Origin: a bacterium
Lineage (GTDB): Bacteria > Hinthialibacterota > Hinthialibacteria > OLB16
DNA: 64,000 bases
NCBI GenBank assembly: GCA_022072055.1
Contig: JAJVIK010000007.1
Span: 513,442 to 577,441 of the forward strand
Reading direction: 5' to 3'
In this document: positions 1 to 40,772 of the stretch, piece by piece
How the letters are laid out: each line of letters starts with the position of its first letter
Position numbering within the stretch: position 1 is the first letter of the stretch
Notes under the pieces: generated by a model
Told to the model about the DNA's origin: nothing
Seen by the model: only the letters and a program-made list of their open reading frames with translations
Databases searched by the model: none
Made by a program: the position numbers and the translations under genes

Positions 1-1
1 G

Positions 2-679
2 GCGGCCTTTCAGAATGCGCATTACACCTTTGGGCCTTACCTCTCCCCCTTTTATTCCCCCGAAATCTTCGGGGATTCGCACCACGCCCTGTTTGGACCC
101 AAGCCGGGGTGGTGGCCGGGGTGGCTGCCGTTTTCGCCGGCCTTTCTGATCCTGTGGGCCCCAGCGGGTTTCCGCTTCACCTGCTATTACTATCGCGGGG
201 CCTATTACAAGGCCTTTTGGGCCGATCCGCCCAACTGCGCGGTGGGCGAACCGCGCAAATCCTATTGGGGCGAGAACTCCTTCCCGCTCATCATGCAGAA
301 CATTCACCGATACTTCTTCTATCTCGCCTTCGCGTTCATCGTGATTCTGGCTTATGACGCTTGGAAGGGGATGTGGTTCGAGGATCCCGCCACCGGGGCC
401 ACTTCCTTTGGGATCGGGATCGGCACTCTGGTCTTGATCGTGAATGTCCTGCTCCTGGGGAGCTACACACTGGGGTGCCACTCGCTGCGGCATTTGGTTG
501 GCGGTCGGTTTGATCATCTTTCGGCGCGGCCCGGGCGCATGAAGGCTTACCACTGTGTGAGCTGCCTTAACCGCAAGCACATGCTGTGGGCTTGGTTGAG
601 CCTTTTCTGGGTCGGGTTCACCGATGTCTATGTCCGGCTCTGTTCGATGGGGATCTGGACCGATTGGAGGATTCTCTGA
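2..679 (+). CDS. sdhC: Succinate dehydrogenase/fumarate reductase cytochrome b membrane subunit, 5'-partial (continues upstream of window)
   Basis: Frame open from window start to TGA at 677-679; hydrophobic helices with conserved His (HSLRHL); stop overlaps sdhA ATG (TGATG); ORF-track 242..679 is the same frame. Confidence 0.6.
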   Translation, partial: AAFQNAHYTFGPYLSPFYSPEIFGDSHHALFGPKPGWWPGWLPFSPAFLILWAPAGFRFTCYYYRGAYYKAFWADPPNCAVGEPRKSYWGENSFPLIMQNIHRYFFYLAFAFIVILAYDAWKGMWFEDPATGATSFGIGIGTLVLIVNVLLLGSYTLGCHSLRHLVGGRFDHLSARPGRMKAYHCVSCLNRKHMLWAWLSLFWVGFTDVYVRLCSMGIWTDWRIL

Positions 680-2502
680 TGGCCATCGACTATCAGACTC
701 ACGAATATGATGTGCTGGTGGTGGGCGCGGGCGGAGCGGGGTTGCGCGCGGCGATTGAAGCGGCGAACGCCGGGGTTCGGGTGGGTGTGATCTGCAAGTC
801 GCTGCTCGGCAAAGCGCACACGGTGATGGCGGAGGGGGGAGTCGCGGCGGCCATGGCCAATGTGGACGAACGCGACAACTGGCGGGTGCACTTCTCCGAC
901 ACCATGCGCGGCGGTCAATATTTGAACAATCCGCGCATGGCGGAGCTTCACGCCAAGGAGGCTCCGGATCGAGTCCGGGAGTTGGAGGCCTGGGGCGCGG
1001 TGTTCGACCGGACCGAGGATGGACGCATCCTCCAAAGGAATTTCGGGGGTCACCGCTATCCGCGCCTGGCGCATGTGGGCGACCGCACCGGCCTGGAGAT
1101 GATCCGCGTGCTTCAGGATCACGCCGTGCACCTTGGGATGACTTTTCACATGGAGTGCACGGTGGTGGATCTCCTCAAGGATGGGGACCGGGTCGCCGGG
1201 GCATTCGCCTATGACCGCGAGCGCGGGCGATTCATGGTGCTCAAGGCCAAGGCGGTGGTGCTCGCCACCGGCGGCATCGGGCGCGGGTTCAAGATCACCA
1301 GTAACAGTTGGGAATACACCGCCGACGGGCAGGCGTTGGCTTACCGCGCCGGGGCGGAGCTGATGGACATGGAGTTTGTCCAGTTTCACCCGACCGGGAT
1401 GGTCTGGCCCCCCAGCGTGCGCGGAATTCTGGTGACCGAAGGGGTGCGCGGGGAGGGCGGAGTCCTCAAGAACAGCAAGGGGGAGCGTTTCATGTTCAAC
1501 GACATCCCCGACCTGTACAAGAACCAGACCGCCGACAACGAGGAAGAGGGTTGGCGGTATGTGCTCGGCGACCGCAACGCGCGCCGTCCGCCCGAGCTCC
1601 TGACCCGCGACCATGTGGCGCGCTGCATCATGCGCGAAATCAAGGAAGGCCGCGGCAGCCCGCATGGCGGGGTGTTTTTGGACATCGCCTGGATCAAGAG
1701 TCGGGTCTCGGGAGGCGCGGAGCACATCAAAAGGAAGCTCCCGAGCATGTATCACCAGTTCAAGGAGCTTGCCGGCATCGACATCACCGAGGAGCCGATG
1801 GAAATCGGTCCAACCACCCACTATATGATGGGCGGCATTCGGGTGGACGCGGACACCCAGATGGCCCGGGTTCCGGGCTTGTTCGCCGCCGGGGAGTGCG
1901 CCGCCGGGTTGCATGGGGCGAACCGATTGGGTGGAAACTCCCTTTCCGATTTGCTCGTGTTTGGGAAGCGCGCCGGCGAATTCGCCGCAATTTTCGCCAG
2001 GGAGCGCGGCGACGCCAAGGTTCATGAATCCCAGGTCGAGGAGGCGGCCCGGCGCGCCTTGGCCCCCTTGGAGCGTCAAGCCGCCACGGGCTCGGAGGGA
2101 CCTTTCCAGGTTCAGCAATCGCTCCAAGACACCATGCAGAGCCTGGTCGGGATTGTCCGCACCGAGGCCGAGATGGCCCATGCGGTCGAGGAGATCGGAA
2201 AGTTGCGCGAACGGGCCGCGAAAGTTGCCGCCTATGGAAACCGGGAGTACAACGCGGGCTGGCACACCGCGCTGGACCTGGAGAACCTGCTCACCATATC
2301 GGAGGCCATCGCCCGCTCCGCGCTGGACCGCAAAGAGAGCCGTGGAGCGCATTTTCGCGAGGACTATCCCAACAAGGACCCGGAATTCGGTAAACTGAAC
2401 ACAATCCTCGAACGGGGCGCGGATGGGTCCATGAAGCTCCGTCGGGAACAGCTCCCCCCAATGGCCGAGGAGCTGGCGAAGGTGATTGAGGAGATGAAGT
2501 AG
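679..2502 (+). CDS. sdhA: Succinate dehydrogenase/fumarate reductase flavoprotein subunit
   Basis: N-terminal FAD fold VLVVGAGGAGLRAA, covalent-FAD His region, HPTG and RLGGNSL motifs, length about 607 aa; start MAIDYQ at 679. Confidence 0.9.
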   Translation: MAIDYQTHEYDVLVVGAGGAGLRAAIEAANAGVRVGVICKSLLGKAHTVMAEGGVAAAMANVDERDNWRVHFSDTMRGGQYLNNPRMAELHAKEAPDRVRELEAWGAVFDRTEDGRILQRNFGGHRYPRLAHVGDRTGLEMIRVLQDHAVHLGMTFHMECTVVDLLKDGDRVAGAFAYDRERGRFMVLKAKAVVLATGGIGRGFKITSNSWEYTADGQALAYRAGAELMDMEFVQFHPTGMVWPPSVRGILVTEGVRGEGGVLKNSKGERFMFNDIPDLYKNQTADNEEEGWRYVLGDRNARRPPELLTRDHVARCIMREIKEGRGSPHGGVFLDIAWIKSRVSGGAEHIKRKLPSMYHQFKELAGIDITEEPMEIGPTTHYMMGGIRVDADTQMARVPGLFAAGECAAGLHGANRLGGNSLSDLLVFGKRAGEFAAIFARERGDAKVHESQVEEAARRALAPLERQAATGSEGPFQVQQSLQDTMQSLVGIVRTEAEMAHAVEEIGKLRERAAKVAAYGNREYNAGWHTALDLENLLTISEAIARSALDRKESRGAHFREDYPNKDPEFGKLNTILERGADGSMKLRREQLPPMAEELAKVIEEMK

Positions 2503-2504
2503 CT

Positions 2505-2717
2505 ATGGCCAGCATACTTGTTAGGACTCGCGTGGAATCGGACACGCTCAGAATCCCCGAGCTATCGTCATTCATCGGCAAGAATGTCGATGTTTATGTG
2601 ACCGAAGCTCGGGCTGAGGAAATCGATCCCGCATGGAGGAATTTTTTCGACAACGCGGCTGAGGATACGATCGACCTCAACGCCGTGATCGAACTTCGCC
2701 AGGCCAGCATGACATGA
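2505..2717 (+). CDS. Putative antitoxin (AbrB/SpoVT-like VapB candidate)
   Basis: 70-aa ORF starting 2 nt after sdhA stop, stop overlaps the downstream PIN gene start (ATGA); lower GC than flanks. Confidence 0.45.
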   Translation: MASILVRTRVESDTLRIPELSSFIGKNVDVYVTEARAEEIDPAWRNFFDNAAEDTIDLNAVIELRQASMT

Positions 2718-3109
2718 CCGTTCTCCTGGACACGAACGTTCTCGTGGACCTCTGGCGGCAACCGTTCGAGAGCGCGCTGGACCGCCTTCCCATGGGGAGA
2801 GCTGCAATTTGTGGCGTGACACGGGCTGAGCTCCTCCAAGGGGCTCGTTCCGCGACGGACAAGGAAACCATCAATCGACGGTTGCGAATGTTCATCCAGA
2901 TTCCGATCACGGAGGACTTGTGGGGTGAGCTCGGCGATATCTTGGCCTGTCTTCGTAGGCAAGGGATTTCCGTCCCATTTCCTGATGCCCTCATTTCCAC
3001 GGTGGCATTGCATGAAGGGATCGCGCTCTGGACCAACGATTCTCATTTCGGGTTGATTCAGCGGGCCTTTCCCAATTTGGATTTATACATCCCCACGAGG
3101 AGCGAATAG
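2714..3109 (+). CDS. vapC: PIN-domain ribonuclease toxin VapC
   Basis: MTVLLDTNVLVD N-terminus with acidic residues typical of PIN; 131 aa; translationally coupled to the upstream small ORF. Confidence 0.75.
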   Translation: MTVLLDTNVLVDLWRQPFESALDRLPMGRAAICGVTRAELLQGARSATDKETINRRLRMFIQIPITEDLWGELGDILACLRRQGISVPFPDALISTVALHEGIALWTNDSHFGLIQRAFPNLDLYIPTRSE

Positions 3110-3111
3110 CA

Positions 3112-3852
3112 ATGCCCCCTGTAACCTTCAACATCTGGCGCGGCGGCGCCGAAGGCGGAGAATTCAAGGAGTATCGGACCGAGGTCACCGAGGGCATGGT
3201 GGTCCTGGATGCCGTGCACCAGATTCAGGCCGAGTCCGCCAATGACCTCGCGGTGCGCTGGAACTGCAAGGCCGGAAAGTGCGGCTCCTGCTCCGCCGAG
3301 ATCAACGGCAAACCGCGCCTGATGTGCATGACCCGCATGAGCGACCTCCCGGTCAATCAGCCCGTGCGCATCGAACCGATGCAGGCCTTTCCCTCAATCA
3401 AGGACCTGGTCACGGATGTCTCCTGGAACTTCGAGGTCAAGAAACGCCTTAAGAGGTTCAAGCCGCGCAAGCCGGACGCGCCGGATGGGTCTTGGCGCTT
3501 CGCGCAGGCCGACACCGACCGGGTCCAGGAGTTCCGCAAGTGCATCGAGTGCTTTCTGTGCCAGGATGTCTGCCATGTGTTGCGCGACCACCACAAGCAC
3601 GAGGAGTTCATCGGGCCTCGCTTCTTCGTTTACTCCGCCGCGCTGGAGATGCACCCGCTGGATGAAGAGGATCGCCTGGAGGACCTCAAGCGCGCGAACG
3701 GCATCGGCTACTGCAACATCACCAAGTGTTGCACCAAGGTCTGCCCCGAGCACATCACCATCACCGACAACGCGATCATCCCGCTCAAGGAGCGCGTGGT
3801 GGACCGCTTCTATGATCCCGTGCGGATGCTGCTCCGGGTGATTGGGGGATAA
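3112..3852 (+). CDS. sdhB: Succinate dehydrogenase/fumarate reductase iron-sulfur subunit
   Basis: Cys clusters CKAGKCGSCS, CIECFLCQDVC, CTKVCPE for 2Fe-2S/4Fe-4S/3Fe-4S centres. Confidence 0.9.
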   Translation: MPPVTFNIWRGGAEGGEFKEYRTEVTEGMVVLDAVHQIQAESANDLAVRWNCKAGKCGSCSAEINGKPRLMCMTRMSDLPVNQPVRIEPMQAFPSIKDLVTDVSWNFEVKKRLKRFKPRKPDAPDGSWRFAQADTDRVQEFRKCIECFLCQDVCHVLRDHHKHEEFIGPRFFVYSAALEMHPLDEEDRLEDLKRANGIGYCNITKCCTKVCPEHITITDNAIIPLKERVVDRFYDPVRMLLRVIGG

Positions 3853-3866
3853 CGGGAAACCCGAGA

Positions 3867-4898
3867 CTATTGCGCCTTCTTGATCTTCGCAGTGGCGAAG
3901 ATCTTGCGGTGGAGGGTCACGAAGTTGGCGGCGTAGGATTTCGGGTTCACCACGATTCTCAGTTCCGGATCGGAGCTGAAGGTGGTTCCCTCGTCGCTGG
4001 TTCGCATCGAGCCTTCAATCAGCAGGAAGCGGTCATAGGGGTGTTGCGGAGACATCATCCGCTGGATGTAATCCCGCGCCGCGCTGCTGGACACCGGGAT
4101 GCTTTTGAACTGGGAGTCGCTCGCGGTGATGATCTTCTCCTGGAGCTTGGGCTTGCGCTCCTTGTATTCCTTGGAGGTGGGAAGCAGGGACTCAAAAATG
4201 CCCCCGCCCGGAAGCCCCAGGATGGCGTCCAACCCCACCTTGTCCTCTTCCCCCTTGCGCGGAGTGGCCACCAGCTCGTTCAAGGTGACGTCGAGAATCG
4301 GAATGGCCGGTCGCTCGGCGCGATCCCTGCCGCGCCCCATGTTGGGGTAGTGGCGCTCCAGCCGCGAGACCTGATAGTTGGCGAGGAAAACCTCAACTCC
4401 CAAGAATGGGTCATAAAGGTAAGCGAGATCATCCTGGGCGGTCTCCATGTACTTCTTGAATTCCGGGGTGACAATCCAGGCGTATTCGGGAACAAGCAGC
4501 TCCGCGAAGGGGATGGTGTCGATGGCCTTGGCGGCCTCGCCCGGTTGGCGACCAAGCGCGAGGATCAGGGCCTGGCGGGCCTTCTGATGCGCCCAATACC
4601 AGTAGTCGGCGTTCTCTCCGCGGTTCTCATTCATGAATTTCTTGTCGCCCTCCGGATCACGCTGGAGGATTTCGGCCTTGTTCTTGGCGATGGTCCGGAC
4701 CGACTTACGGGTCATGAGGGTCACAAAAGCGTCGTTTTCCTCCAGGATCGCGGCTTCCTGTTCGCTAAGCTCCTTGGGAACATCGGCTTGGCGGACCTTG
4801 GAAAGGGCGGCGCCCTCTTGGGGTGTCGCCATCAGGACACAGGCGAACGCGGCAAGGATCGTGGGAAAGAAGTGGGGGAGAAGTCGGTGCGCTTCCAT
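3867..4898 (-). CDS. Hypothetical secreted protein (N-terminal signal-like hydrophobic segment)
   Basis: 343-aa ORF, non-repetitive composition, hydrophobic N-terminus; no recognisable catalytic motif. Confidence 0.5.
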   Translation of the reverse strand: MEAHRLLPHFFPTILAAFACVLMATPQEGAALSKVRQADVPKELSEQEAAILEENDAFVTLMTRKSVRTIAKNKAEILQRDPEGDKKFMNENRGENADYWYWAHQKARQALILALGRQPGEAAKAIDTIPFAELLVPEYAWIVTPEFKKYMETAQDDLAYLYDPFLGVEVFLANYQVSRLERHYPNMGRGRDRAERPAIPILDVTLNELVATPRKGEEDKVGLDAILGLPGGGIFESLLPTSKEYKERKPKLQEKIITASDSQFKSIPVSSSAARDYIQRMMSPQHPYDRFLLIEGSMRTSDEGTTFSSDPELRIVVNPKSYAANFVTLHRKIFATAKIKKAQ

Positions 4899-4969
4899 CG
4901 GGGATCAGATTTCCTCCAGGCAGAGCTATGGTGCCACTCCCGAGCGTCGCTTGGCAAGGCGGTCAGCGT

Positions 4970-5335
4970 TCAGGCGCTGTCCCGGTGGACTGTGGCGGGC
5001 GAAAAGGCCGGGACACACACCGCGATGTATTCCGCCCCCTCTTCGACTGGGGTGCTGTATTGGACCCATTCCCCGGCGTGGGCGATGACCGCCTGACCCG
5101 CGCTCACATCCAGGCTGCCTTCCTTGTGGGTTACTCGAAGCAGACCCTTGAGGACCACGGTGAACTCATCAAATTCGGGCGTTTGACCGGGTTCGACCCA
5201 GCCTGCGGGGCTGCGCATGTGGGCCACGCTCGCGGCTTCGATCCGGCTGTTCACCCGGCCAATGTACTCCTCGATAATCTTGGGTTTGTTCCCGGCGGCT
5301 TCGATCCGAGTCGGGGCGGCGATCAGGGTCGGCAT
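4970..5335 (-). CDS. Cupin-domain protein
   Basis: 121 aa; small beta-barrel-like pattern with conserved His/Glu positions. Confidence 0.5.
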   Translation of the reverse strand: MPTLIAAPTRIEAAGNKPKIIEEYIGRVNSRIEAASVAHMRSPAGWVEPGQTPEFDEFTVVLKGLLRVTHKEGSLDVSAGQAVIAHAGEWVQYSTPVEEGAEYIAVCVPAFSPATVHRDSA

Positions 5336-5449
5336 GGGGGTTCTCCTTCGCGGATTCGCGGGCGGATTGTCACCCGCGTTTCTCTCCCGGATACTACCAA
5401 TCCGAGTCGCGCTTGTCGCGTCCCCATTGCTTCATCAAAGGAAGCGTCC

Positions 5450-6124
5450 ATGCCTCGCCTTTTCTTCATTTCGATTGCCTTTGTGTGCCTGTGCGCGCTT
5501 TGCGGTTCGGGAAGGGCCGAGGCCCCCGACGGCGTCGAGTGGCCGGTGGTGTTCAAGGAGGATTTCTCCGCTCCCACCTCGGTGGAGCGTTGGGAATTCG
5601 CCGATCCTTCCGCCTGGAGGCTCGCGAGCGGGGAGGGTTTTCCGTTTCTCTCCACCTTCAAGGACAGCGCCCACAAGCCTCCGGTTCGCTCCCCCGAGAA
5701 CATTGCCTGGATCAAAGACCTCGAGGTGGGGAGTTTTGTGTTGGATGCCACCGCGCGGTCCACGGAGCGGGAGTATGGCCACCGGGATGTTTGCGTGCTA
5801 TTCGGAAGGCAGGACCCCGCTCACTTCTATTATGTCCATCTGGCCACCAAGGCCGATGAGCACGCGCACTCCATCTTTCTGGTGAATGGCGAGCCGCGCG
5901 TGTCCATCGCCCAAGCTCGGACGGATGGGGTTGCCTGGAACGAGAGCTGGCATCACATCCGGGTTGTGCGCAATGTTCAAGCGGGGGATATCGTGGTGTT
6001 TTTCGACAATATGGACACCCCGATCATGCGCGCGGTGGACACCCACTTCGCCAAGGGGCGCGTGGGCTTCGGCTCCTTCGACGACACGGTCGATCTGCGG
6101 GAGATCGTGATCCGTGGGGAGTAG
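5450..6124 (+). CDS. DUF1080 (3-keto-disaccharide hydrolase-like) secreted protein
   Basis: ATG at 5450 followed by signal peptide MPRLFFISIAFVCLCALCG; DUF1080-like C-terminal motif GRVGFGSFDDTVDLREIVIRG; long upstream extension in the ORF track rejected. Confidence 0.7.
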   Translation: MPRLFFISIAFVCLCALCGSGRAEAPDGVEWPVVFKEDFSAPTSVERWEFADPSAWRLASGEGFPFLSTFKDSAHKPPVRSPENIAWIKDLEVGSFVLDATARSTEREYGHRDVCVLFGRQDPAHFYYVHLATKADEHAHSIFLVNGEPRVSIAQARTDGVAWNESWHHIRVVRNVQAGDIVVFFDNMDTPIMRAVDTHFAKGRVGFGSFDDTVDLREIVIRGE

Positions 6125-6166
6125 GGCGCGTTTCGTTCAGCCTATTGCGCAAGCGCGAGGTGAGAC

Positions 6167-6961
6167 TTACAACTCCTCGAAGGTTTTCACGGTCACCTCG
6201 GCAATCTTCACTCGGTGAGTCCCGGCGCCAAGACCATGTGCGATGAGGATGAGTTCCAGACTGTTCATCTGCGTCCGCGTCCAAGCTCCCCCATACTCAC
6301 CGGCCCACTCGCCATACTCAAAAGTTAAAACCTGGGGACTTGTCAGTGGCGGAAAAGTCAGAGGGAGCGCAACGAAATAGGGTTCAGCGAAGGCCTGTCC
6401 CGCAATTCTCACGTTGACTTCGAGATCATCAATACTGCCATCGCGTTCAGCGACTAGTCGGACTTCGAGCTTCTTGATTCCCCAATCCTGATTTGGATTA
6501 TCGAAACCATAGATCTGAGGAACATCATTGTCCTCAGAACTCACACGCGCCTCAATATAGGTGCCAAGGCTATTGTCTCTCAGAAGGGCGTGGTCACTAA
6601 CATGCCATTCCTGTGTAACGCTGGCATTTGGACTGAGGGGATAGTTTGCGGCAGTCGTCGTAGAAATCGAATTCTGACTTTGATGGGTATTAAGATCACT
6701 CATCAGCTCCACGACTTTTATCCAATACTGGGTGTTCTCATTCAGTCCGGAAACAGTGCATGAGCCAGTCGTCTGACCTTGTACATACAGGGCATCAGCC
6801 CCTGGTTCCCATGGCCCGCTCGCGGAAGTTTGTGAGATGTAAACTGTCGCGCTTAGTGGGGAGATGCCCCCGGCTGGAGGTGTCCAATCCCACTGCACGG
6901 TCAGCGTGCCTGGCGTACGTTTCGTCACGGCCTCATTCGATAGCCATACACCCATTGTCAT
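6167..6961 (-). CDS. Hypothetical protein with fibronectin type III-like N-terminal region; lower-GC orphan gene
   Basis: 264-aa ORF; FN3-like pattern (TVQWDW...GLNENTQYWIKVV); visibly lower GC than the flanking atp genes. Confidence 0.5.
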   Translation of the reverse strand: MTMGVWLSNEAVTKRTPGTLTVQWDWTPPAGGISPLSATVYISQTSASGPWEPGADALYVQGQTTGSCTVSGLNENTQYWIKVVELMSDLNTHQSQNSISTTTAANYPLSPNASVTQEWHVSDHALLRDNSLGTYIEARVSSEDNDVPQIYGFDNPNQDWGIKKLEVRLVAERDGSIDDLEVNVRIAGQAFAEPYFVALPLTFPPLTSPQVLTFEYGEWAGEYGGAWTRTQMNSLELILIAHGLGAGTHRVKIAEVTVKTFEEL

Positions 6962-7084
6962 ACCCAGAGCTTCTCCTTCTCATTCCATAGCTGTGACGGA
7001 AAGTTCTTCCGTTGCCACGGAATTGTCAAGGGAAAAATTTGCCGTTACCCACTGCAATGAGGAAAGTCGGTGGAGCTGTCCGCC

Positions 7085-10124
<3,040 letters not shown>

Positions 10125-10140
10125 GATTGTGTTCGTGCTC

Positions 10141-10719
10141 CTACGAATTGGAGGTCGCGGCCAAGGCCCCGGCGGGGTCCGTCAGGGTCTCGCGCAACCG
10201 CTCCAGTTTGGTCTTGACGCTCGCGTCCAGGATGGAGTTCCCCATGCGAATCCGCACGCCCCCGATGATCGAGGGATCGAGAGTGAACTCCAGTTCGGGC
10301 TTCTTTCCGGTGATCTTGGCGACCACCTCGGCGATCTTTGCCTTGGCCGCTTCGTCCGCCGGCGCGGGCACGGTCACCTCGGCCTGAATCACTCCCGCCT
10401 CTCGTCGCCCGAGCTCATCGAAGGCCGCCACCATCTGCTCCAGGTGGGCGATGCGGCGTTTGCGGATCACCAGGCGCAGGAAGTTGTGGGTTATTTCGGA
10501 GAGGCCGAGCTTGGCGCGGAGGTCGCCGAGGAGTTCCAGACGGGTCTTGTTGTCATAGGCCGGGTCGAGCATGACCTCGCGCAGACGGCTCCCCTCGCCA
10601 AAGAGATCGAGAAAGGTGTGCAGATCGCGGGCAACCACCGGGAGTTGGTCGGTGCCGCGAACCACCCGCAGGAGCCCATCCGCGTAACGTTGCGCCAAGA
10701 CACTGGTGTAGGCCATCAA
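10141..10719 (-). CDS. atpH: F1 ATP synthase delta (OSCP) subunit
   Basis: 192-aa ORF immediately upstream of atpA with OSCP-like C-terminus ([18 protein letters not shown]). Confidence 0.8.
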
Positions 10720-10728
10720 TCTCTTCCG

Positions 10729-11022
10729 TTATTCCGAGGCGTTTTTCAAACACACGGATTCATTTTTGTATCGCAGCCCGATCAGCAGCAGGGAGAGCAG
10801 GTGTCCCGCCGCGAAGGCAACCACCGCCGAGTCCATCCGAATTCCCGGGATCAGCGCGCCCGCCGCAAGCAAGGCCCCCACGGCGAGGATTCGGATGAGC
10901 GAATCCAGGCGGAGTCTTGTGGAACCTCCCACGGTTCCGCGCTCGCGCGCTCCCAAGGCCCGCACAAGCAGGCCCGTGTGCAGGGCCGCCGCAACAAGCC
11001 CCCACAGCGCGCCCACGAGCAT
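10729..11022 (-). CDS. Small membrane protein (three hydrophobic segments; possibly AtpI/AtpZ-like)
   Basis: About 97 aa from internal Met MLVGALWG; sits where an Fo b-subunit gene would be expected but lacks the b-subunit coiled coil. Confidence 0.35.
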   Translation of the reverse strand: MLVGALWGLVAAALHTGLLVRALGARERGTVGGSTRLRLDSLIRILAVGALLAAGALIPGIRMDSAVVAFAAGHLLSLLLIGLRYKNESVCLKNASE

Positions 11023-11200
11023 TGAGAGAAACACCGAAACCCTCTTGCTGTATCGTCCGGGTTGCCAGTGGGCAAAGAGAAGCGACCGACCACCGGAAGG
11101 AATCGGGCCAAGCGCCGAAGGGGAGCGGAAAACCTCCCTCCGGCTGCACCGGGCGGATTGTGCGGTCCCCGGCGTTCCTGTCAAGTCCCCAGGAGGGGAC

Positions 11201-12946
11201 TTACCCGTTCACCCACTCGCTCTCCAGGTCCACTAGGCTCTTCCGGTAGGCGGTGGAAAAGGCATCTTCGATGCTCTCCCCGTCGCCAATCGCCTCAATC
11301 AACCGTCGCGCCTTGGGCCAGCCCCCTTTGTCCTCGATCAGGAAGCGGACGAATAGGAAGGATTCCAGGTATACCTGAGCGGCGATGGCGGAGTCGGAGA
11401 TCCCCGCAAACTCCCCCACCAGTTTGCTGGGCATCGGCAACCTCCCGGAGGCCAGCGAGTCCATCACTTGGCGGCGGAGCAGCGGGTTGTCCGGATTCTG
11501 GCCCGCCGCCATCTGCGCCAAGCCCTCATGCAGCCACACCGGAATCTTCGCGGGCGCGGTCCGGTTGTGCAGCAAGGCGTGGGTGTACTCATGGAAGACC
11601 AGCTCGGCCAGATACTGCCCGCCCGAAATCAGGTCGGATTCGCTGAGGTCCGAGAGCGGGAGGCGGATCTTCCCGTCATAGGCCCCGCCCGCCCAACTGT
11701 GGAGTCCGGTGATCTTGGAAAACTGGCCGCCACTGTAAATCACCACTGGGATGGTTCCCTTGGGGCGCAGGCCGAACTTGCGCCCGACCTCGCGCGCCGC
11801 CTGCTCCAGGAGCTTGCGGGTTTCCTTGGCCACATGCGCCACCTCGCGCCCCTCGAACGAAATCCGGAAGAAGCCCCGGTCTTGGGTCACAAAATCGCCC
11901 GCCTCGTCGATCTCCAAGCGGACCTTCTCGATCAGTTCGCCGAGCTCGGCCTGCGGGGCGCCCTCGTAGGCGCGCTCGAAGTAGTCCAGCGCGGTGTCGA
12001 GATCGTATTCCTGATAGGCCAACTGTCCGATCTGAAAAAGCGCGCCGGGATGATTGGGGTCATGCTCCAGCGCCTTCTTGAAGAGCATCTCGCGGCGACG
12101 GGTCTCGGTGGAGGGAAAACCGAGGGCCTGGTCCACATACAGCGAGGCGAGCGCGGAGCGCACCTGCGGCTCCAAATGCGTGTCGCCGCTTCCGGCAAGG
12201 AGCGAGAGGGCTTCCAGAAGTTTCCGTTCCCCGACCCCATAGTTCCCGGAGAGACGGAGCTCATTGCCGTTGCCCGCCACCGCGAAGGCCAGGTTCAGGC
12301 GAACCGCGGATTGCTCCGGCAGGTTCTGGTAGGCCTTTCGCAGAACCTGTTCGGCCTCCTCGAATTGGCGCGCCTCCGCCGCGCGGACCCCTTTTTCGTT
12401 ATAGAGGAAACCGAGGAGTTGAATGCGTTCCGTGGCGGAGAGGGATTGACCCTGCGGACTCTCCAGCACCAGGCGGATTTTCTCATCCACCGAGAGCTTC
12501 TCGAAGGCCGGCCCGAAGGGGTTGCGGATCAAGGCCACCCCGGCGGAATGCGGTTCAAAGGAGAGGCTCTCCTCGACGGGTTCGGGAAGCGGGGGCGCGG
12601 GGGCAGCGAACTCCCCGGAGAGGAGGACCTGGGTCACCTTCCCCGCCTCGAGGGTCAGGATCCCGCGCGAGTGTTCCAGTCCGGCGGCGAGCTTGTACTG
12701 ATAGATCCCGGGTTTGGGAACCTTGAACGAGGCAGTGGCGCTTTCCACCAGCTTCGAGGTGCGGATGAAACCCTTTCCGAGCACTGAGAAGTTGACCTCG
12801 CCGGGAACCTCGGAGCGGATGAGCACGGTGGGACGGGCGCTCGCGCTTTCAATCTGATGGAGGTGAACCTCCACTTCGGCGGAGGACCGTTGAGCGACGG
12901 CTAGCGCGACGAGGGTTGTAAGAAGGGCGAGCCGAGGCGCGCGCAT
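11201..12946 (-). CDS. Secreted TPR-repeat protein with HExxH zinc-metallopeptidase motif
   Basis: Signal peptide MRAPRLALLTTLVALAVAQ; TPR-like helical repeats; HEYTHALLH motif near C-terminus. Confidence 0.7.
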   Translation of the reverse strand: MRAPRLALLTTLVALAVAQRSSAEVEVHLHQIESASARPTVLIRSEVPGEVNFSVLGKGFIRTSKLVESATASFKVPKPGIYQYKLAAGLEHSRGILTLEAGKVTQVLLSGEFAAPAPPLPEPVEESLSFEPHSAGVALIRNPFGPAFEKLSVDEKIRLVLESPQGQSLSATERIQLLGFLYNEKGVRAAEARQFEEAEQVLRKAYQNLPEQSAVRLNLAFAVAGNGNELRLSGNYGVGERKLLEALSLLAGSGDTHLEPQVRSALASLYVDQALGFPSTETRRREMLFKKALEHDPNHPGALFQIGQLAYQEYDLDTALDYFERAYEGAPQAELGELIEKVRLEIDEAGDFVTQDRGFFRISFEGREVAHVAKETRKLLEQAAREVGRKFGLRPKGTIPVVIYSGGQFSKITGLHSWAGGAYDGKIRLPLSDLSESDLISGGQYLAELVFHEYTHALLHNRTAPAKIPVWLHEGLAQMAAGQNPDNPLLRRQVMDSLASGRLPMPSKLVGEFAGISDSAIAAQVYLESFLFVRFLIEDKGGWPKARRLIEAIGDGESIEDAFSTAYRKSLVDLESEWVNG

Positions 12947-12950
12947 CGGG

Positions 12951-13319
12951 CTAATCCTTCCTCGCGCGGCTGAGCGGCTCGGTGTCTTCGAGCTCGCCCC
13001 AGGTGACTCCGGGCTCCTCGACCCAATCGGGCCTTCGCTTGGGGTCGAACCGGTCGAGCTGGACTTCGAGGGGGGAGCGTTGGGGGCGCGGTCTCCCGGC
13101 GTTGCGCCACTTCTCGCGGTGCCACGCGCGGATGCGTCTCCGCGAGTTGTCGTAAACCGCGACACAGACCATGGCCAGGATCGAGACTCCAAACCCCAGC
13201 GCCCAATAGAGAGGCTCCACCGGACTCAGTCCCCCTTCGCCCTTTGGGGGAGTATATCGGAAGGGCGGGGGCGGGGGGAATAGAAGGGGGGAATCGGAAA
13301 CGCCTTCGCTTTCCGACAA
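12951..13319 (-). CDS. Small hypothetical single-pass membrane protein
   Basis: 122-aa ORF with Pro-rich N-terminus and one hydrophobic helix; abuts the downstream metalloprotease gene. Confidence 0.3.
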   Translation of the reverse strand: MSESEGVSDSPLLFPPPPPFRYTPPKGEGGLSPVEPLYWALGFGVSILAMVCVAVYDNSRRRIRAWHREKWRNAGRPRPQRSPLEVQLDRFDPKRRPDWVEEPGVTWGELEDTEPLSRARKD

Positions 13320-13324
13320 CCGGT

Positions 13325-13723
13325 TCAGCGCCTTGCCCAGTTCTCCAGTCGCAGATCCGGGATCCTTCCGAAGCGCTTCACATTGTTTGTGACCAAGCAG
13401 TAATCGAGCATGAGGGCGCTTGCGGCGATGATCAAGTCAAAGTCGTCGAGAACCTGGCCCTTCCGCGAAAGGTCTGCTTTCAGTGACGCGTAGGTTTCCA
13501 TCACGCCTCGAGTTATCCCGATCACCGGGAAAACTTCGATGAGTTGGCGAACATTTGCCGTGTTTTGGCGAGGGTTTTCCGATTTCTCCGCCCCATGCAG
13601 GAGCTCTCCGTAGCTGATCATCGAGATCGCTTTCGGGAAAGGTTCTTTCTCTTTGAGGGTCGCGAGAACAGACCTATTCCCTCGCAGGATGAAGACGAGG
13701 ATGTCGGTATCAATCAAAAACAC
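13325..13723 (-). CDS. vapC: PIN-domain toxin VapC (probable GTG start)
   Basis: VFLIDTDILV PIN N-terminus; no in-frame ATG, GTG at 13723 overlaps the antitoxin stop. Confidence 0.7.
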   Translation of the reverse strand: MFLIDTDILVFILRGNRSVLATLKEKEPFPKAISMISYGELLHGAEKSENPRQNTANVRQLIEVFPVIGITRGVMETYASLKADLSRKGQVLDDFDLIIAASALMLDYCLVTNNVKRFGRIPDLRLENWARR

Positions 13724-14024
13724 GAAGCATTTTCTCCCGCCGGGATGAAAACCGCCGGGCTTTCCGGATCGAATCCGCAATCTCCTCGGCCGACCTTGAA
13801 TCCTTCCAGGTCCCGGCCAGCTTCAAGAGCTCTCGCGTGGCCTTCGCTGGGTCCTCCTCCGGTCGCGAGAGGCCCTCCTGGATGAGTGTGACCACCTCCT
13901 GGCTGATGGACCGGTTGTTCCTTTTCGCCCTTGCCCCCAGGGCGCGATACAAGTTGTCGTCCATTCCCTTGACTTGCAGATTCGCCACGATGGTCTCCCA
14001 TTCCAATCCTGACCCCTCAATCAT
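13710..14024 (-). CDS. vapB: Ribbon-helix-helix antitoxin (VapB/FitA-like)
   Basis: N-terminal beta-strand then helices (ANLQVKGMDDNLYRALGARAKRNNRSISQEV), RHH-like; overlaps the PIN gene. Confidence 0.6.
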   Translation of the reverse strand: MIEGSGLEWETIVANLQVKGMDDNLYRALGARAKRNNRSISQEVVTLIQEGLSRPEEDPAKATRELLKLAGTWKDSRSAEEIADSIRKARRFSSRREKMLRVFD

Positions 14025-14210
14025 CCTATCGGGTCTTTCATGAGAAGGCAACCGAATTTCATGAAAGGGCATCCGAACCGCTCTGGAATCCTTCGTGGTT
14101 AAGGTTCACCAGGGTTCTTCGACACCGGCAAACTCGATATACTCTACCCTCACTTCCGCCGACCTCTCCAAGCCGCGAGGGACGCGGTGGTGGTGGCGGG
14201 CTAACCGAGG

Positions 14211-17051
14211 ATGGGCCAACCGATGCACGCAAAGACCCGCCGGATCCTTTTCAGCGCTGTGGTGACACTTCTCTCAACCCTCGGAGTCACGATGCGGGCC
14301 GAGTCCATGACACCCACCCATCTCCGCTGTGAATACCTGGTGAACCCGATCGGAATCGATACGGCCGTCCCACGCCTGAGCTGGCGACTCGCTTCCAGCG
14401 CGCGCGGCGCGCGGCAGAGCGCCTACCGGATTCTGGTGGCCTCCTCCACAGCCGAGCTGAGCAACGACCAAGGCGACCTGTGGGACTCCGGGAAGATCGA
14501 GTCCTCCGAGACCACGCAGATTGTCTATTCCGGAAAGACGCTTTCACACGGTCTTGAATGCCATTGGAAGGTCCGCGCCTGGGACAGCGCGGGGACCCCT
14601 TCCGGATGGAGCGAGGTCGCGCGCTGGTCAATGGGTCCGATGGAGAGCTCGGATTGGACCGCGAAGTGGATCGGCAACGAGGCGCCCTCCCCGCCCACCC
14701 AAGACCCGCTTCCGGCCCAGATGCTTCGCAAGGAATTCGCCCTTGCTTCCTCGCTCCGTCGCGCGGTGGTGCATGTTTCCGCCCTGGGCCTCTATGAGCT
14801 GCGCCTCAACGGCGCGCGCGTGGGGAACCAACTCCTCGCGCCCGAATGGACCGACTATCCCACCCGGGTTCAATATCAGACATACGAAGTGACTGGCTTG
14901 CTTCGCGCCGGAGAAAACGCGGTTGCGGCGCATCTCGGCGATGGGTGGTATTCGGGGCGGATCGGTCTTTCCAACATCGTTCCCGATGGACCGTTGCGCG
15001 GCATTTATGGTCCAAGACCCCGGTTGCTCGTTCAGCTGGAGATCGAATTCGAGGATGGACTTAAGGAGCGGGTGGTCAGCGATGGGAGTTGGCGGCTGAC
15101 CGATGAAGGCCCGATTCGCTCGGCGGACATCCTGGATGGGGAGGTGTATGACGCCCGCCGGGAAAAGCCCGGATGGGACCAGCCCGGTTTTGAGGATTCC
15201 GATTGGAAACCGGTCCAAGTTGAAGAGGATTTCCAGGGCAAGCTGGTGGCCCAGAGGAACGAACCGATCCGAGTGGTCGAGGAGCTGAAACCGATCGCGA
15301 TCACCGAACCGGCGTCCGGCGTGTACATCTTCGATCTCGGGCAGAACATGGTGGGCTGGTGCCGCGCGCGCCTCAGGGGCGAGGCTGGGCGCGCCATCCG
15401 GCTGCGTCACAGCGAGGCGCTGAAGCCGGATGGAACCCTCTATCGAGACAATCTGCGCATGCCGAGTGATGGAGGTCCCTTGGGAGCGCGTCAGGAGGAT
15501 CTCTACATCTGCCGCGGCGAAGGGCCGGAGTGGTTCGAGCCGCATTTCACCTACCATGGTTTCCGCTATGTCGAGGTGACCGGACTTGCGGAGCGACCCA
15601 ACCTCGATTCGCTTGTGGGGCGGGTGTTCTGCTCCTCCGCGCCGGAGACCGCGACCTTTGAGTGCTCCGAGCCGATGCTGAACCGGCTCATGAAGAACAT
15701 CCTCTGGACCCAGCGCGGCAATCTGATGAGTGTTCCGACCGACTGCCCGCAGCGGGATGAGCGTCTAGGTTGGATGGGGGATGCCGGAATCTTCTCTCCG
15801 GCGGCGTGCTTCAACATGGACATGGCCGCATTTTTCACCAAGTGGCTCCAGGATGTTCGGGATTCCCAGGCCGCGGATGGCCGCTTTCCGGATTTCGCGC
15901 CGCATCCGTTCGGTCCGAACGAACGTTTCTCCGGGGTTCCGGCTTGGGGGGATGCCGGGGTGATTGTCCCGTGGGTGGTTTATCGCTGGTATGGGGACAG
16001 TCGGCTGATCGAGACCCATTTCCAGGCCGCCGCGCGCTGGGTGGACCGGATCGCGGAGAAGAACCCGGATCGGATCTGGCGGAACTCTCGCGGCAACGAC
16101 TATGGCGATTGGCTGAATGGCGACACGCTGATCCGGGAGGGGTGGACGCGCGCTGGGGCGGCGATCCCGAAAGAGATCTTCGCGACCCTCCTGTTCGCCA
16201 ACTCGGCAACCCTGGTGGCCAAAATGGCGGCCGTGATCGGCAAGGAGCGGGAGGCCGAGAAGTACAGCGAACTGGCGAGGACCATCCGCGCCGCGTTTGT
16301 CCGGGAGTTTGTGGACAGCGAAGGGCGCATCCAGGGGGACACCCAGGCGGGGTATGCCCTCGCGCTCTCCTTCGAAATGCTCCCAGCGGAGCTCGAGGCG
16401 AAGGCGTTTACACACATGGTGGAGGCTATCGAGAAATATAACCAGCATCTCTCAACCGGGATTATCAGCACCCTTCACCTGATGAACGAGCTGGCGAATC
16501 GCGGCCAGGTCGAGCTGGCCTACCGTCTCCTTACTCAGCGGACCTTCCCTTCCTGGGGGTATGCCATCGAGCAGGGCGCCACCACGATCTGGGAGCGTTG
16601 GGATGGGTATGTGGAGGGCCGGGGATTTCAGGACCCCGGGATGAACTCCTTCAACCACTATGCCCTGGGGGCGGTGGGCGAGTTCATCCATCGAAACATC
16701 CTCGGGATCAACCCGGACACGGACCATCCGGGGTTTGCGCATGCGCGGATTCACCCTCGTCCCGGCGGGGGTTTGACCTGGGCGCGTGGAGCCTATGACT
16801 CGATCCGCGGTCCGATCCGGGTGAGCTGGAGAATCAACGACGCCGGTGGGTTCCGGTTGGAGGTGGAGCTCCCCGCGAACACGAGTGGGACTGTTTACCT
16901 CCCCGCGCGGGAAGCCGCCCAAGTGAGTGAAAGCGGCAAGTCGCTCCGGGAGGCGGAAGGGATTCTCGCGAGCAGGGCCGAGGGAGAGGTCACCGCCGTG
17001 GAGGTGGGTTCGGGGGCGTATGCCTTCGAGGTTTCTCACGCGCCAAGGTAA
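14211..17051 (+). CDS. Alpha-L-rhamnosidase (glycoside hydrolase family 78)
   Basis: 946 aa with signal peptide; GH78 blocks (DCPQRDERLGWMGDAG, six-hairpin region, C-terminal beta-sandwich). Confidence 0.85.
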   Translation: MGQPMHAKTRRILFSAVVTLLSTLGVTMRAESMTPTHLRCEYLVNPIGIDTAVPRLSWRLASSARGARQSAYRILVASSTAELSNDQGDLWDSGKIESSETTQIVYSGKTLSHGLECHWKVRAWDSAGTPSGWSEVARWSMGPMESSDWTAKWIGNEAPSPPTQDPLPAQMLRKEFALASSLRRAVVHVSALGLYELRLNGARVGNQLLAPEWTDYPTRVQYQTYEVTGLLRAGENAVAAHLGDGWYSGRIGLSNIVPDGPLRGIYGPRPRLLVQLEIEFEDGLKERVVSDGSWRLTDEGPIRSADILDGEVYDARREKPGWDQPGFEDSDWKPVQVEEDFQGKLVAQRNEPIRVVEELKPIAITEPASGVYIFDLGQNMVGWCRARLRGEAGRAIRLRHSEALKPDGTLYRDNLRMPSDGGPLGARQEDLYICRGEGPEWFEPHFTYHGFRYVEVTGLAERPNLDSLVGRVFCSSAPETATFECSEPMLNRLMKNILWTQRGNLMSVPTDCPQRDERLGWMGDAGIFSPAACFNMDMAAFFTKWLQDVRDSQAADGRFPDFAPHPFGPNERFSGVPAWGDAGVIVPWVVYRWYGDSRLIETHFQAAARWVDRIAEKNPDRIWRNSRGNDYGDWLNGDTLIREGWTRAGAAIPKEIFATLLFANSATLVAKMAAVIGKEREAEKYSELARTIRAAFVREFVDSEGRIQGDTQAGYALALSFEMLPAELEAKAFTHMVEAIEKYNQHLSTGIISTLHLMNELANRGQVELAYRLLTQRTFPSWGYAIEQGATTIWERWDGYVEGRGFQDPGMNSFNHYALGAVGEFIHRNILGINPDTDHPGFAHARIHPRPGGGLTWARGAYDSIRGPIRVSWRINDAGGFRLEVELPANTSGTVYLPAREAAQVSESGKSLREAEGILASRAEGEVTAVEVGSGAYAFEVSHAPR

Positions 17052-17060
17052 GGTTCATGG

Positions 17061-17228
17061 GCGGAGTCCAACTCCGCGGTCCGGTTCCGCCCAGGAGTCC
17101 AACTCCTGGGCGAGCGGAGGGTTAGAGCATTTCTCACTCGGATGTCGTGTTGGAGGGGCGCGGTCCCTCGCGTCCGGACACGACAGAGCTACGGGGGCGT
17201 CCGGACACGACAGAGCGTGTCCCTCCTG
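17061..17228. repeat. Mosaic GC-rich palindromic repeat, copy B1 (two TCCAA-loop hairpins, TTAGAGC module, GGACACG hairpins)
   Basis: Fills the convergent gap between rhamnosidase and rhaT; homologous to segments at 40720-40772, 53925-54020 (inverted) and 60552-60637. Confidence 0.6.
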
Positions 17229-17229
17229 G

Positions 17230-18285
17230 CTACGGGGTCGCGTCCTTCAGGTAATTCCCCACTCCAATGATGAGGGTGGAGAGGATCAACACCGCGATGC
17301 CGCCTTGGAGCAGCCCCTTGGCCTTCGGGCTGGTTCCGCTCCATTCACGCAGCCAGAGACCCCACAGATTGCTGAACACGATGATGAAGGCCATGTGGAG
17401 GGTCCAACTGGAGAAATCATACTCGCCCATGCGCGTGGTCCCCATCCCATAGAAGAAGAATTGCAAGTACCAGGTGACCCCGGCCAACGCGGAAAAGATG
17501 TAGTTCCGCGTCATCCCCGGCTTGGTGGTGTCGAGATATTCCCCGACCGTGCCGTTGGAATAGTGCAGCAGGGCGCACCAGATCAGGTTGGTCGTGAATC
17601 CGCCCAATAGAACCACCACGAGCACCGGGGTGTTTTGCCAGATGTCCGGCGTGCCCATCTCAATCGCCAGACCGGCGATGGGCTTGCCGGCCTGAAAGGC
17701 GAAGGCCATGCAGGCGCTCATGATCCCGCAGAAGACCGCCACCCAGACCCCCTTGGTGAACTGGTATTCGGCCACCGCGTTGGCCTTTTCGGCCACCGAG
17801 AGCTCCCGCTCCTTAAGGACCCCAGCCCAACCGCTGACCCCGATTCCCGCGATGCACACGCACACCCCGAGAAGAATGGCCCATCCGGAAGCTTGGGTGA
17901 GAAGAACTCCCAAGGTTCCCTCGAAGAGCGGCGGGAGAAGGGTCCCGAAGGTGGCGCAAAGTCCGAGCGCCAAGGCATACCCCAGCGAAAGCCCCAGATA
18001 GCGCATGGTCAACCCGAAGGTGAGTCCGCCCACGCCCCACAGAACCCCGAAGAGGTAAGTGTTGAAGAGCGCCGCCGCGGGGGCGCTGGAGAGGATCTCA
18101 AACAGACGCGGATTGAGCAGACTGGCCGCCACCAGCGGCGCGATGATCCAGGAGAACACCCCGCCCACCGCCCAGTAGGTCTCCCAGGACCAGCCCCGAA
18201 CCTTCTTGAACGGGAGGTAAAAGCTCCCCGCGGCCAGCCCCCCGACCGCGTGCAAAAACACACCCAGCATCGGATTCGCTTCCAT
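17230..18285 (-). CDS. rhaT: L-rhamnose-proton symporter
   Basis: About 351 aa, 10 TM helices, RhaT-like N-terminus MEANPMLGVFLHAVGGLAAGSFYLPFKKV; upstream extension in the ORF track rejected. Confidence 0.85.
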   Translation of the reverse strand: MEANPMLGVFLHAVGGLAAGSFYLPFKKVRGWSWETYWAVGGVFSWIIAPLVAASLLNPRLFEILSSAPAAALFNTYLFGVLWGVGGLTFGLTMRYLGLSLGYALALGLCATFGTLLPPLFEGTLGVLLTQASGWAILLGVCVCIAGIGVSGWAGVLKERELSVAEKANAVAEYQFTKGVWVAVFCGIMSACMAFAFQAGKPIAGLAIEMGTPDIWQNTPVLVVVLLGGFTTNLIWCALLHYSNGTVGEYLDTTKPGMTRNYIFSALAGVTWYLQFFFYGMGTTRMGEYDFSSWTLHMAFIIVFSNLWGLWLREWSGTSPKAKGLLQGGIAVLILSTLIIGVGNYLKDATP

Positions 18286-18311
18286 GTGTCCCTCGCTCGC
18301 TCGAAATTGTC

Positions 18312-19814
18312 TCAGCAGACACTTGCGAAGTCCCAATCCATCAATGCGGCCACCTTCCGGAATTGGGAACTGTTGTGGCCCACCGACATGGCCACATGGT
18401 GAGTGGGCCCCAGGGCGAACCACTCGTTCATGAACTGGGTCGGACCCTTGGGGAAGCGCACGGGGGTCATGGTGTTGCCGATGCGCAGAATCTCTCCATC
18501 CGTGGCCATCCCTTGATTGGAAATGGCGAGGAGTTTGCCCGCGCGGGTTTGGGTGATCCCCAAGTTGGTGATCGGTCCGGTTCGGACCTTGGCCTCCACC
18601 GAGACCCCGCTGCCCCACTTGCCATGGTAAAGCCCCATTCCCCGGAGGATCGGCTTACGGTCCGAGATGCCCACATGGAAGGGGCCATCATGCCCCATCA
18701 GGATGGTCTGATCGACAAAATCGGTGGCCACAATCTCGCTGTAGCTCCCCCCCACCCCCAAGGTGTCGCAGACCTTCATCGCCACCGCGGTCTTCATGTC
18801 CCCCTCCCCGGAACAGGGGATGCCGCTTCCGGTGAGGAGCGAATGGCCGAGGATGAAAGCCTCTTGCAGACGTTCGTATTCGTTGCCCTCGGCCCCACGG
18901 TAGTAATAGGTGAGCGCATCCAGGTCGAACTCGCGGACAAGCTTTTCCTGCGCCACCGCGACCGTGCAGGACCAATCGAGCTGCTCGGGAGTGGGCTTCT
19001 TGGCGAGGGGGTCGGCGGGAGAATCCTCGCTGATGATGAAGAAATCCTCCACCTCGCGGAGCTTGGTTTTCTTTTCCGCCTCGGTGACAGTCGGCAGGAG
19101 CTTCATCAGGTCGCACATTTCCAGGATTTCCACATGCAGCCCGGTCTTGGCCTGGATTAGGGTGAAGTCGCTGTACATGTCGAGCATGCCGGGGTAGGTG
19201 TGGCCGAGAAAACCCATCCGTCCATATTGAAGGGTGCGAGCCACCCCCGCCGCGCGGGCCCACTCTTCGATCTCCTTCCAGGCCGAAACGGCATCGGGAT
19301 GGGAGCGGGTGGCTTCGTTGGCCACCGAGATCGCGGGGGTGCTCTCCAGACCGAGCAACCCGCTCACCACATGGAACGGAATGCCGGAACGTTCAAAGGC
19401 GTTGGAGATCTCCGGCACACAGCAGGCGACGCAATGAGCCAGCCATTCGCCGGTGGCGGTCTTGGCGTAATTCATCCGTTCCGCGGGTTGGAGATTGAGG
19501 ACCACCACCGGGCGCCTGCAAATCTGGGAAACCGGGAGATGCGAGGCGCTCATGGCGTAGGTGGAGACATGGCAGAGGATCAGGTCCACATTGCGCTCGT
19601 TGAACCACTCCCCGGCCTTATGCGCCTTGGACTCCTCATCCACCATCCCGAAGTTGTGCACCTCGGCCCACTCGGAGAGACGTCCCTCCACAAACTTGCC
19701 ATACCCCGCCAAGCGGTCGAGCAGTCCCGGGAATTGAACCCAGTAATGGGGATGGCCGATTGAATAGAGTCCGATGCGACCTTTGAGGGGGGGCTTGATC
19801 CGTTGAAAAGTCAT
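18312..19814 (-). CDS. L-arabinose isomerase family sugar isomerase
   Basis: About 500 aa; blocks matching AraA (GEGDMKTA, HHVAMSVGHN). Confidence 0.7.
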   Translation of the reverse strand: MTFQRIKPPLKGRIGLYSIGHPHYWVQFPGLLDRLAGYGKFVEGRLSEWAEVHNFGMVDEESKAHKAGEWFNERNVDLILCHVSTYAMSASHLPVSQICRRPVVVLNLQPAERMNYAKTATGEWLAHCVACCVPEISNAFERSGIPFHVVSGLLGLESTPAISVANEATRSHPDAVSAWKEIEEWARAAGVARTLQYGRMGFLGHTYPGMLDMYSDFTLIQAKTGLHVEILEMCDLMKLLPTVTEAEKKTKLREVEDFFIISEDSPADPLAKKPTPEQLDWSCTVAVAQEKLVREFDLDALTYYYRGAEGNEYERLQEAFILGHSLLTGSGIPCSGEGDMKTAVAMKVCDTLGVGGSYSEIVATDFVDQTILMGHDGPFHVGISDRKPILRGMGLYHGKWGSGVSVEAKVRTGPITNLGITQTRAGKLLAISNQGMATDGEILRIGNTMTPVRFPKGPTQFMNEWFALGPTHHVAMSVGHNSSQFRKVAALMDWDFASVC

Positions 19815-19918
19815 GGGCCTTCTCCAGCTCTTGGGGGCGGCCAAGAAAGTGCGATTCCGCGGGGATGCGCTCCGCGAACGATTGAAGTCGGTATGCTACC
19901 GCCGGAGGTTTCGAGACT

Positions 19919-40722: not shown

Positions 40723-40772
40723 AGCATCTCTCAACCCGAATGTAGCGTCGGAGGGACGCGCTCCGTCGCGTC
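40720..40772. repeat. Mosaic GC-rich palindromic repeat, copy B2 (TAGAGC module plus GGAGGGACGCG hairpin)
   Basis: Aligns with 17122-17175 and with the reverse complement of 53960-54020. Confidence 0.5.

Follow-up and report, generated by a model that had tools for sequence, protein, structure and literature searches.

A lineage-restricted orphan gene behind atpD in an OLB16 bacterium carries an FN3 module and was probably acquired horizontally

Bacterial ORFans and small acquired genomic islets, as described by Lawrence and Ochman and by Daubin and Ochman, comprise a single short gene that is richer in AT, lacks homologues, is patchily distributed, and sits at the end of an operon or at a breakpoint in synteny. 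The gene described here (hereafter the orphan) resembles them in all of these respects. It departs from those islets in that it has no mobility gene, tRNA, repeats, or phage link, and in that half of its product is a recognizable FN3 domain. Among described proteins, those closest to this half are bacterial extracellular fn3 proteins of the glycoside-hydrolase or adhesin type (e.g., P0002, with 18 fn3 domains and an F5/8-type-C domain, and P0014, with fn3 and CBM_2 domains), to which a whole repeat including its linker aligns at 31-40% identity. Unlike these proteins, the orphan product has a single repeat, no signal peptide, and no catalytic or known CBM domain; its C-terminal domain is unrelated to theirs, and its Pfam fn3 score is below the cut-off. 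By position, the orphan also recalls the epsilon subunit of the F-ATPase (atpC), which likewise follows atpD and, as is predicted for the orphan product, is rich in beta-sandwich structure. However, the orphan product is twice the size of epsilon, matches no epsilon profile, and is missing from relatives that have the same operon.

On account of its composition, its restriction to one lineage, and its lack of homologues, we favor the reading that the orphan is a horizontally acquired, lineage-specific accessory ORFan of foreign origin. This is the best-supported explanation, and we regard it as moderately probable. A sequence-only reading of the same DNA had proposed a candidate horizontally acquired gene, and the proposal is supported by the findings that the gene is a compositional outlier, is absent in relatives, and has no full-length homologue.

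The orphan resides in a 64-kb stretch of DNA, all of which was analyzed and which is called the window below, from an organism that carries the NCBI label 'Candidatus Omnitrophica bacterium'. OLB16 is treated in the literature as a separate candidate phylum that was earlier misfiled under Omnitrophica (PMC10066038, PMC11484514). The atpD proteins of the nearest relatives are 83-89% identical and are encoded on contigs labelled OLB16 (L086, L097). These close relatives came from the protein database, and a scan of contigs with atpD yielded only matches of at most 75% identity from mixed phyla.

An F-type ATP synthase cluster occupies positions 7085-11184 of the window, where a small ORF without assignment precedes atpH (10141-10719), atpA (8574-10124), and atpD (7085-8512; Pfam ATP-synt_ab, E=7e-73), all three on the reverse strand. 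The last of these genes encodes F1 beta. The 264-aa ORF that had been noticed downstream of atpD is indeed found there, at 6167-6961 on the reverse strand, 123 nt past the atpD stop; it has 264 codons plus a stop and is the sole long ORF within 6125-7084. Its codon positions follow the order GC1>GC3>GC2, which is a coding-like pattern. A Shine-Dalgarno-like GAAGGAG, read directly from the sequence, is present at 6973-6979 (reverse strand), 11 nt before the ATG. Seven codons 5' of this ATG is an in-frame TGA, and therefore an N-terminal extension of the protein is impossible. The protein begins with MTMGVWLSNEAVTKRTPGTLTVQWDW, has no hydrophobic signal sequence at this end, and yielded no signal peptide. 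The 123 nt that separate the orphan ATG from the atpD stop (6962-7084) contain no consensus terminator or promoter. On the other side, a 42-nt spacer without a terminator-like hairpin (6125-6166) separates the end of the orphan from a convergent gene on the forward strand (~5450-6124), which encodes a secreted protein of unknown family.

The orphan has a GC content of 52.3% (0.523) and a GC3 of 0.532, versus a GC content of 62.3% (0.623) for the window. The reference for all composition measures was the 64-kb window, from which a greedy set of 54 other ORFs was taken (mean GC 0.620, sd 0.028; GC3 ~0.73). The orphan deviates from these ORFs in GC (z=-3.5), in GC3 (z=-2.5), and in a synonymous-codon likelihood score (z=-2.3); well-supported resident genes have GC3 values of 0.72-0.86. 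The orphan locus is the lowest-GC stretch of 795 nt in the window, and the equally GC-poor stretches of this length, which make up 0.2% of all such stretches in the window, all overlap it. The dip in GC spans ~6150 to ~7050 and thus includes the upstream spacer. The GC had been described as visibly lower than that of the neighbors, and against the 64-kb reference this description is accurate (z=-3.5; GC3 of 0.53 versus 0.73). The same is true for codon usage, and the composition of the gene is atypical for the window rather than within its normal range. Low GC is also typical of native ORFans that evolve fast or under relaxed selection.

Other small accessory genes of the window, namely those of PIN and ribbon-helix-helix (RHH) pairs, are likewise low in GC (0.54-0.57). 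One VapBC-like pair (2505-3109; local GC 0.56) is located within a core operon, between sdhA (586-2502) and sdhB (3112-3852), and pairs a 70-aa ORF, which no Pfam family matches, with a PIN-domain ORF (2714-3109). Another TA-like pair (13325-14072; GC 0.54-0.57), formed by an RHH antitoxin (13710-14072) and a PIN toxin (13325-13780), adjoins a TPR/peptidase-MA gene that flanks the atp cluster. Two further small ORFs, 40526-40834 and 47708-48040 (-), have a GC3 of ~0.52 and no Pfam match; either they are not real genes, or they could represent further accessory genes of atypical composition.

In the cluster of the window, as in those of all the OLB16-type relatives, atpG is missing from between atpA and atpD, and no atpC follows atpD. 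We built HMMs from 43 atpG genes and 38 atpC genes of canonical loci, the latter genes being located downstream of atpD. These models matched neither the window nor the searched loci of relatives, which extend to 13 kb at most (L082, L085, L088, L090, L093, L094), and therefore the gamma and epsilon subunits must be encoded elsewhere. An identity of the orphan itself as epsilon or gamma was considered and rejected, as neither HMM matches it.

All OLB16-type relatives whose loci were examined (L082-L087, L088/L089, L090, L091, L093, L095, L096, and L097) keep the order small ORF-atpH-atpA-atpD. What follows atpD takes eight distinct arrangements, none of which includes the orphan. A gene convergent to atpD follows in some of them, encoding a Prok-JAB protein (L082-L087), a polyprenyl synthase (L091), or a GFO_IDH oxidoreductase (L090). 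In the others, the genes that follow are on the same strand as atpD and encode ParE and Phd (L088/L089; 7561-8099 in L088), HicA and HicB (L093; 7425-7891), a PBP-like protein (L095), a PMT-family protein (L096), or, in L097 (5514-6821), an unknown protein of 227 aa that is unrelated to the orphan, a DUF4258 protein, and a 73-aa protein. A presence/absence comparison had been suggested as a check on foreign origin, and its outcome is that the orphan is missing from every relative arrangement and shows no conserved synteny. This absence does not define a clean empty site, as the genomes differ by rearrangements on either side of the atp cluster. Nevertheless, as judged from these loci, the orphan is lineage-restricted, being known from two strains of one species, and its site is variable.

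The toxin-antitoxin cargo of some relatives provides a further comparison. The ParE/Phd pair of L088, the HicAB pair of L093, and the DUF4258 cluster of L097 are, like the orphan, small same-strand inserts directly 3' of atpD. In contrast to them, the orphan is a single gene of 264 aa that matches no TA or defence family and has no similarity to those inserts. In this phylum, small accessory modules may have landed repeatedly in the atpD 3' flank.

The second strain is represented by assembly GCA_013360775.1 (contig JABWAZ010000196.1; locus L094), whose atpD protein is identical to that of the window. The two DNAs are ~99.6% identical across 5.5 kb, and the ~18 SNPs and 1 indel between them establish that this is a different strain as well as a different assembly. 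The contig spans atpA, atpD, the orphan, and the neighboring gene co-linearly, with the 264-codon frame intact and at the same distance from atpD. Within the orphan ORF there are 2 SNPs, one synonymous (6935) and one that changes Ile to Val (6205). Their density equals that of atpD and atpA, and for this reason the orphan must be older than the split of the two strains. Purifying selection on the gene cannot be shown, since the two strains provide only these 2 SNPs. In the public annotation of this contig (4798-5334), just the last 178 codons of the orphan are called, from Met87, and the FN3 module is omitted. Because FN3 homology covers the part that is dropped, we judge from these matches that the full 264-codon ORF with its FN3 module is the better gene model.

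Window positions 5953-7036 are also covered, at 100% identity, by a Logan contig (L001), which confirms the junction between the orphan and the convergent gene. Both this contig and L094, which derive from different strains and assemblies, terminate exactly at window position 5953, which falls within the convergent gene. The window contains no repeat that would account for the shared end; it may reflect a repeat located in another part of the genome, or a junction that varies within the population.

The orphan protein can be divided into an N-terminal FN3 module with a linker (residues ~8-114; 6620-6940, reverse strand) and a C-terminal region of ~150 aa that is predicted to be beta-rich (residues ~115-264; 6170-6619, reverse strand). 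The module is detected by Pfam, phmmer, BLASTP, and a repeat profile. Pfam fn3 (PF00041) matches residues 11-98 with 20.8 bits (E=4.6e-4), which is below the gathering score of 25. When 1.84 billion cluster representatives were searched exhaustively with phmmer, 14 other proteins were recovered, all of which match only residues ~8-114 and are multi-FN3 proteins, and some of which also bear F5/8-type-C or CBM_2 domains. The best of these is P0002 (E=2e-18), whose own match to fn3 has E=2e-213. BLASTP aligns the orphan with P0002 repeats at 31% identity across 116 residues, and the start of the orphan coincides with a repeat/linker boundary of P0002, 7 residues before the FN3 A-strand. Furthermore, when a profile was built from 52 FN3 repeats of the phmmer matches without the orphan, residues 12-112 scored 53 bits against its positions 5-103 (of 105). 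Going by these alignments and the independent profile, residues ~8-114 are one complete, bona fide FN3 module. The earlier label 'FN3-like' was therefore apt, as shown by the phmmer and repeat-profile scores, with Pfam remaining below its gathering score.

The C-terminal region has no match among the 1.84 billion representative proteins or in Pfam, NCBIfam, PHROGs, PADLOC, or PDB sequences. One long BLASTP alignment hinted at a second, diverged FN3 domain in this half of the protein. We rejected this candidate on the basis of the 52-repeat profile, which scores ~0 bits on residues 101-264 with filters off. Thus, the homology and profile results describe an architecture of an FN3 module, a Thr/Pro-rich linker, and ~150 residues without detectable relatives. 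AlphaFold2 single-sequence models of the whole protein and of residues 104-264 are all-beta, with a pLDDT of 40.6 each, and 6 strands, compared with the seven of an fn3 beta-sandwich, are modelled within residues 10-86 at a pLDDT of only ~40-58.

For the protein as a whole, no PHROGs or PADLOC family matches at E<=1, and neither NCBIfam nor PDB sequences give a match. A word-index search of 5.8 billion proteins finds only the orphan's own entry (P0001, 'hypothetical protein GHCLOJNM_01723'). A full-length homologue is likewise absent from the 1.84-billion phmmer search, IMG/VR, JGI metagenome contigs, INPHARED phage, and plasmid records, and neither the window nor the loci of the relatives contain a paralogue or another FN3 domain of the same type. 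Homology searches and structure prediction, which had been proposed as checks, therefore lead to homology limited to the FN3 module and to models with a pLDDT of ~40. That the gene has no recognizable function was also claimed at the outset, and this agrees with the results from Pfam (beyond the sub-threshold fn3 match), PHROGs, PADLOC, NCBIfam, PDB sequences, and the protein searches.

Upstream of the orphan, three motifs had been singled out as possible operator sites, and all three are present on the reverse strand. These are a TTGACA hexamer (7024-7029), the palindrome TTCCGTGGCAACGGAA (TTCCGT-N4-ACGGAA; 7007-7022), and GGTAACGGCAAAT (7037-7049). The hexamer has no acceptable -10 partner 16-18 nt downstream, and a promoter scan finds no sigma-70-type promoter there. 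An inverted repeat with 6-bp arms, such as that of the palindrome, arises in 24% of shuffles of the 123-nt spacer (P=0.24) and is thus at chance level. GGTAACGGCAAAT is a single copy, with no second copy nearby, and Rfam gives no match within 5900-7300 at E<=1. For these reasons, we consider operator sites to be unsupported. The palindrome and a third TTCCGT hexamer (6996-7001) form a compound hairpin (6982-7024, reverse strand) just 5' of the ribosome-binding site. The triple arrangement TTCCGT-N4-ACGGAA-N5-TTCCGT occurs in ~1% of spacer shuffles and in 15/520 (3%) equal-sized blocks of the window, and the RNA fold of the spacer has an energy of -47.7 kcal/mol (z=-2.5). The sole other copy of the spacer, in L094, is identical to that of the window. 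An integron cassette (attC) reading of the hairpin was set aside after inspection by eye found no GTTRRRY/RYYYAAC core sites.

No intrinsic terminator was detected in the stretch that separates atpD from the orphan, nor downstream of the latter. Because none separates the two genes, unlike in L082, where a strong terminator directly follows atpD, the orphan would be transcribed mainly by read-through from atpD. Translation would then begin from its own GAAGGAG. MAFFT had aligned the spacer segment GGGTAACGGCAA...TTGACAATT with GGGGTATGGCAA...TTTTTTATTT of L082. A decayed copy of the relatives' terminator was nonetheless rejected, as pairwise local alignments compared with shuffles gave P=0.26-0.78, and the spacer has no significant similarity to the relatives' post-atpD spacers.

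No flanking direct repeats are found at the orphan apart from an internal 28-nt match to atpD. The last 9-10 codons of the orphan (EVTVKTFEE; 6173-6200, reverse strand) match 23/28 nt of an atpD segment in the same frame (EETVKGFKE; 7196-7223, reverse strand). This is the insert's best 28-nt match anywhere in the 64 kb on either strand. Other window blocks outside the locus, as well as 200 shuffles, reach at most 21/28, and the corresponding atpD segments of relatives match the orphan 3' end at just 13-19/28. A duplication of the atpD 3' end was considered and dropped, as the match cannot be lengthened, whether or not gaps are allowed; it is isolated and statistically unusual. It may be a trace of recombination or microhomology, or it may be coincidental (P roughly 0.01).

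Several other explanations of the locus deserve consideration. Perhaps the ORF no longer functions and is a relic, left over from a larger gene for a multi-FN3 surface protein, whose frame is open by chance. We view this as a possibility, though a distinctly less probable one than acquisition of an accessory gene. It is compatible with foreign origin and denies only present function. The ORF begins at a repeat/linker boundary as in P0002, 7 residues before the FN3 A-strand, and an in-frame stop lies 7 codons before the ATG. The product also lacks a signal peptide, whereas its FN3 relatives are all large secreted-type repeat proteins, its C-terminal half is without homologues, and the annotation of L094 calls just 178 aa. 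Against a relic, the 264-codon frame is intact in two strains, chance alone would hardly keep so long a frame open at a GC of 52%, the ATG is preceded by a GAAGGAG ribosome-binding site, and the order GC1>GC3>GC2 is coding-like. The orphan might instead be a native gene that is fast-evolving or partly de novo in origin, with a low GC that reflects relaxed selection rather than transfer. Daubin and Ochman are said to have reported in 2004 that ORFans are generally AT-rich, which would suit a native gene. The failure of every search to reveal a donor also fits, as does a SNP density equal to that of the flanks, which indicates that the gene is not very recent. However, we find a native origin unlikely. 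The N-terminal half is a complete, bona fide FN3 module that is homologous to existing families, and this half therefore did not arise de novo. Moreover, no paralogue or like FN3 domain exists in the window or in the relatives' loci, and a GC3 deficit of at least 20 points is hard to reach by drift in a genome region of 62% GC.

It is also conceivable, but in our estimation rather improbable, that the orphan came from a phage as a moron, or that it is a new cargo of one gene, akin to defence or toxin genes, in a recurrent TA/defence slot. Phage structural proteins commonly contain FN3 modules and lack signal peptides. In addition, ParE/Phd (L088), HicAB (L093), and DUF4258 with small ORFs (L097) occupy the same position and strand, and two VapBC-like pairs are near core operons in the window. 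This explanation is opposed by the lack of any PHROGs, PADLOC, IMG/VR, or INPHARED match and by the lack of a partner gene or of phage genes nearby. Only slightly credible is the proposal that the 3' end of the atp cluster is a recurrent OLB16 cargo slot, where small accessory genes such as ParE/Phd, HicAB, DUF4258 modules, and the orphan are expressed by read-through because the housekeeping operon before them is highly transcribed, that the orphan is a new single-gene defence or stress module or the founder of a new beta-sandwich domain family, and that the 28-nt match is a recombination scar. We consider it very improbable that the orphan is an accessory subunit of the ATP synthase or a replacement for epsilon (atpC). 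It does lie directly 3' of atpD, which is the normal place of atpC, and is probably co-transcribed; the cluster lacks atpG and atpC, with the HMMs for both blank in the window; and a 28-nt in-frame match joins its 3' end to atpD. But distribution largely refutes such a role, given that all relatives share the cluster without atpG and atpC yet do not have the orphan. The epsilon HMM from 38 atpC genes also has no match at E<=10 among the six-frame ORFs of the window, and the composition of the orphan is foreign. Finally, the sharp compositional break, together with the end of the Logan contig 49 nt short of atpD, might suggest an assembly or binning chimera in a MAG. The chance of this is negligible, as it is already refuted by the independent L094 assembly from a different strain, which spans the region from atpA through the orphan to its neighbor, and the Logan contig crosses the other junction at 100% identity.

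We therefore return to horizontal acquisition, for which the following scheme can be proposed. A short piece of DNA would have been acquired by illegitimate recombination and would now form an islet of ~0.96 kb (6125-7084), lodged between the last gene of the atp cluster and the convergent resident gene. Its probable source is a gene that encodes a multi-FN3 protein of the glycan-binding type, extracellular or at the cell surface, as suggested by the start of the ORF exactly at an FN3 repeat boundary. There is no integrase or transposase among the neighboring genes and no tRNA within positions 1-20000. No donor lineage was found in the protein, IMG/VR, JGI, phage, or plasmid searches, in which the best FN3 identity is ~31-40%. 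If the orphan is functional, its role would probably be that of a binding or scaffold module, not that of an enzyme.

The orphan thus adds to the AT-rich ORFans of uncultured lineages and is an example of a single gene carried as cargo behind a core operon. It would gain greater weight if its C-terminal domain proves to be a new fold or to have a new binding specificity, or if the atpD 3' flank is a true insertion hotspot in OLB16.
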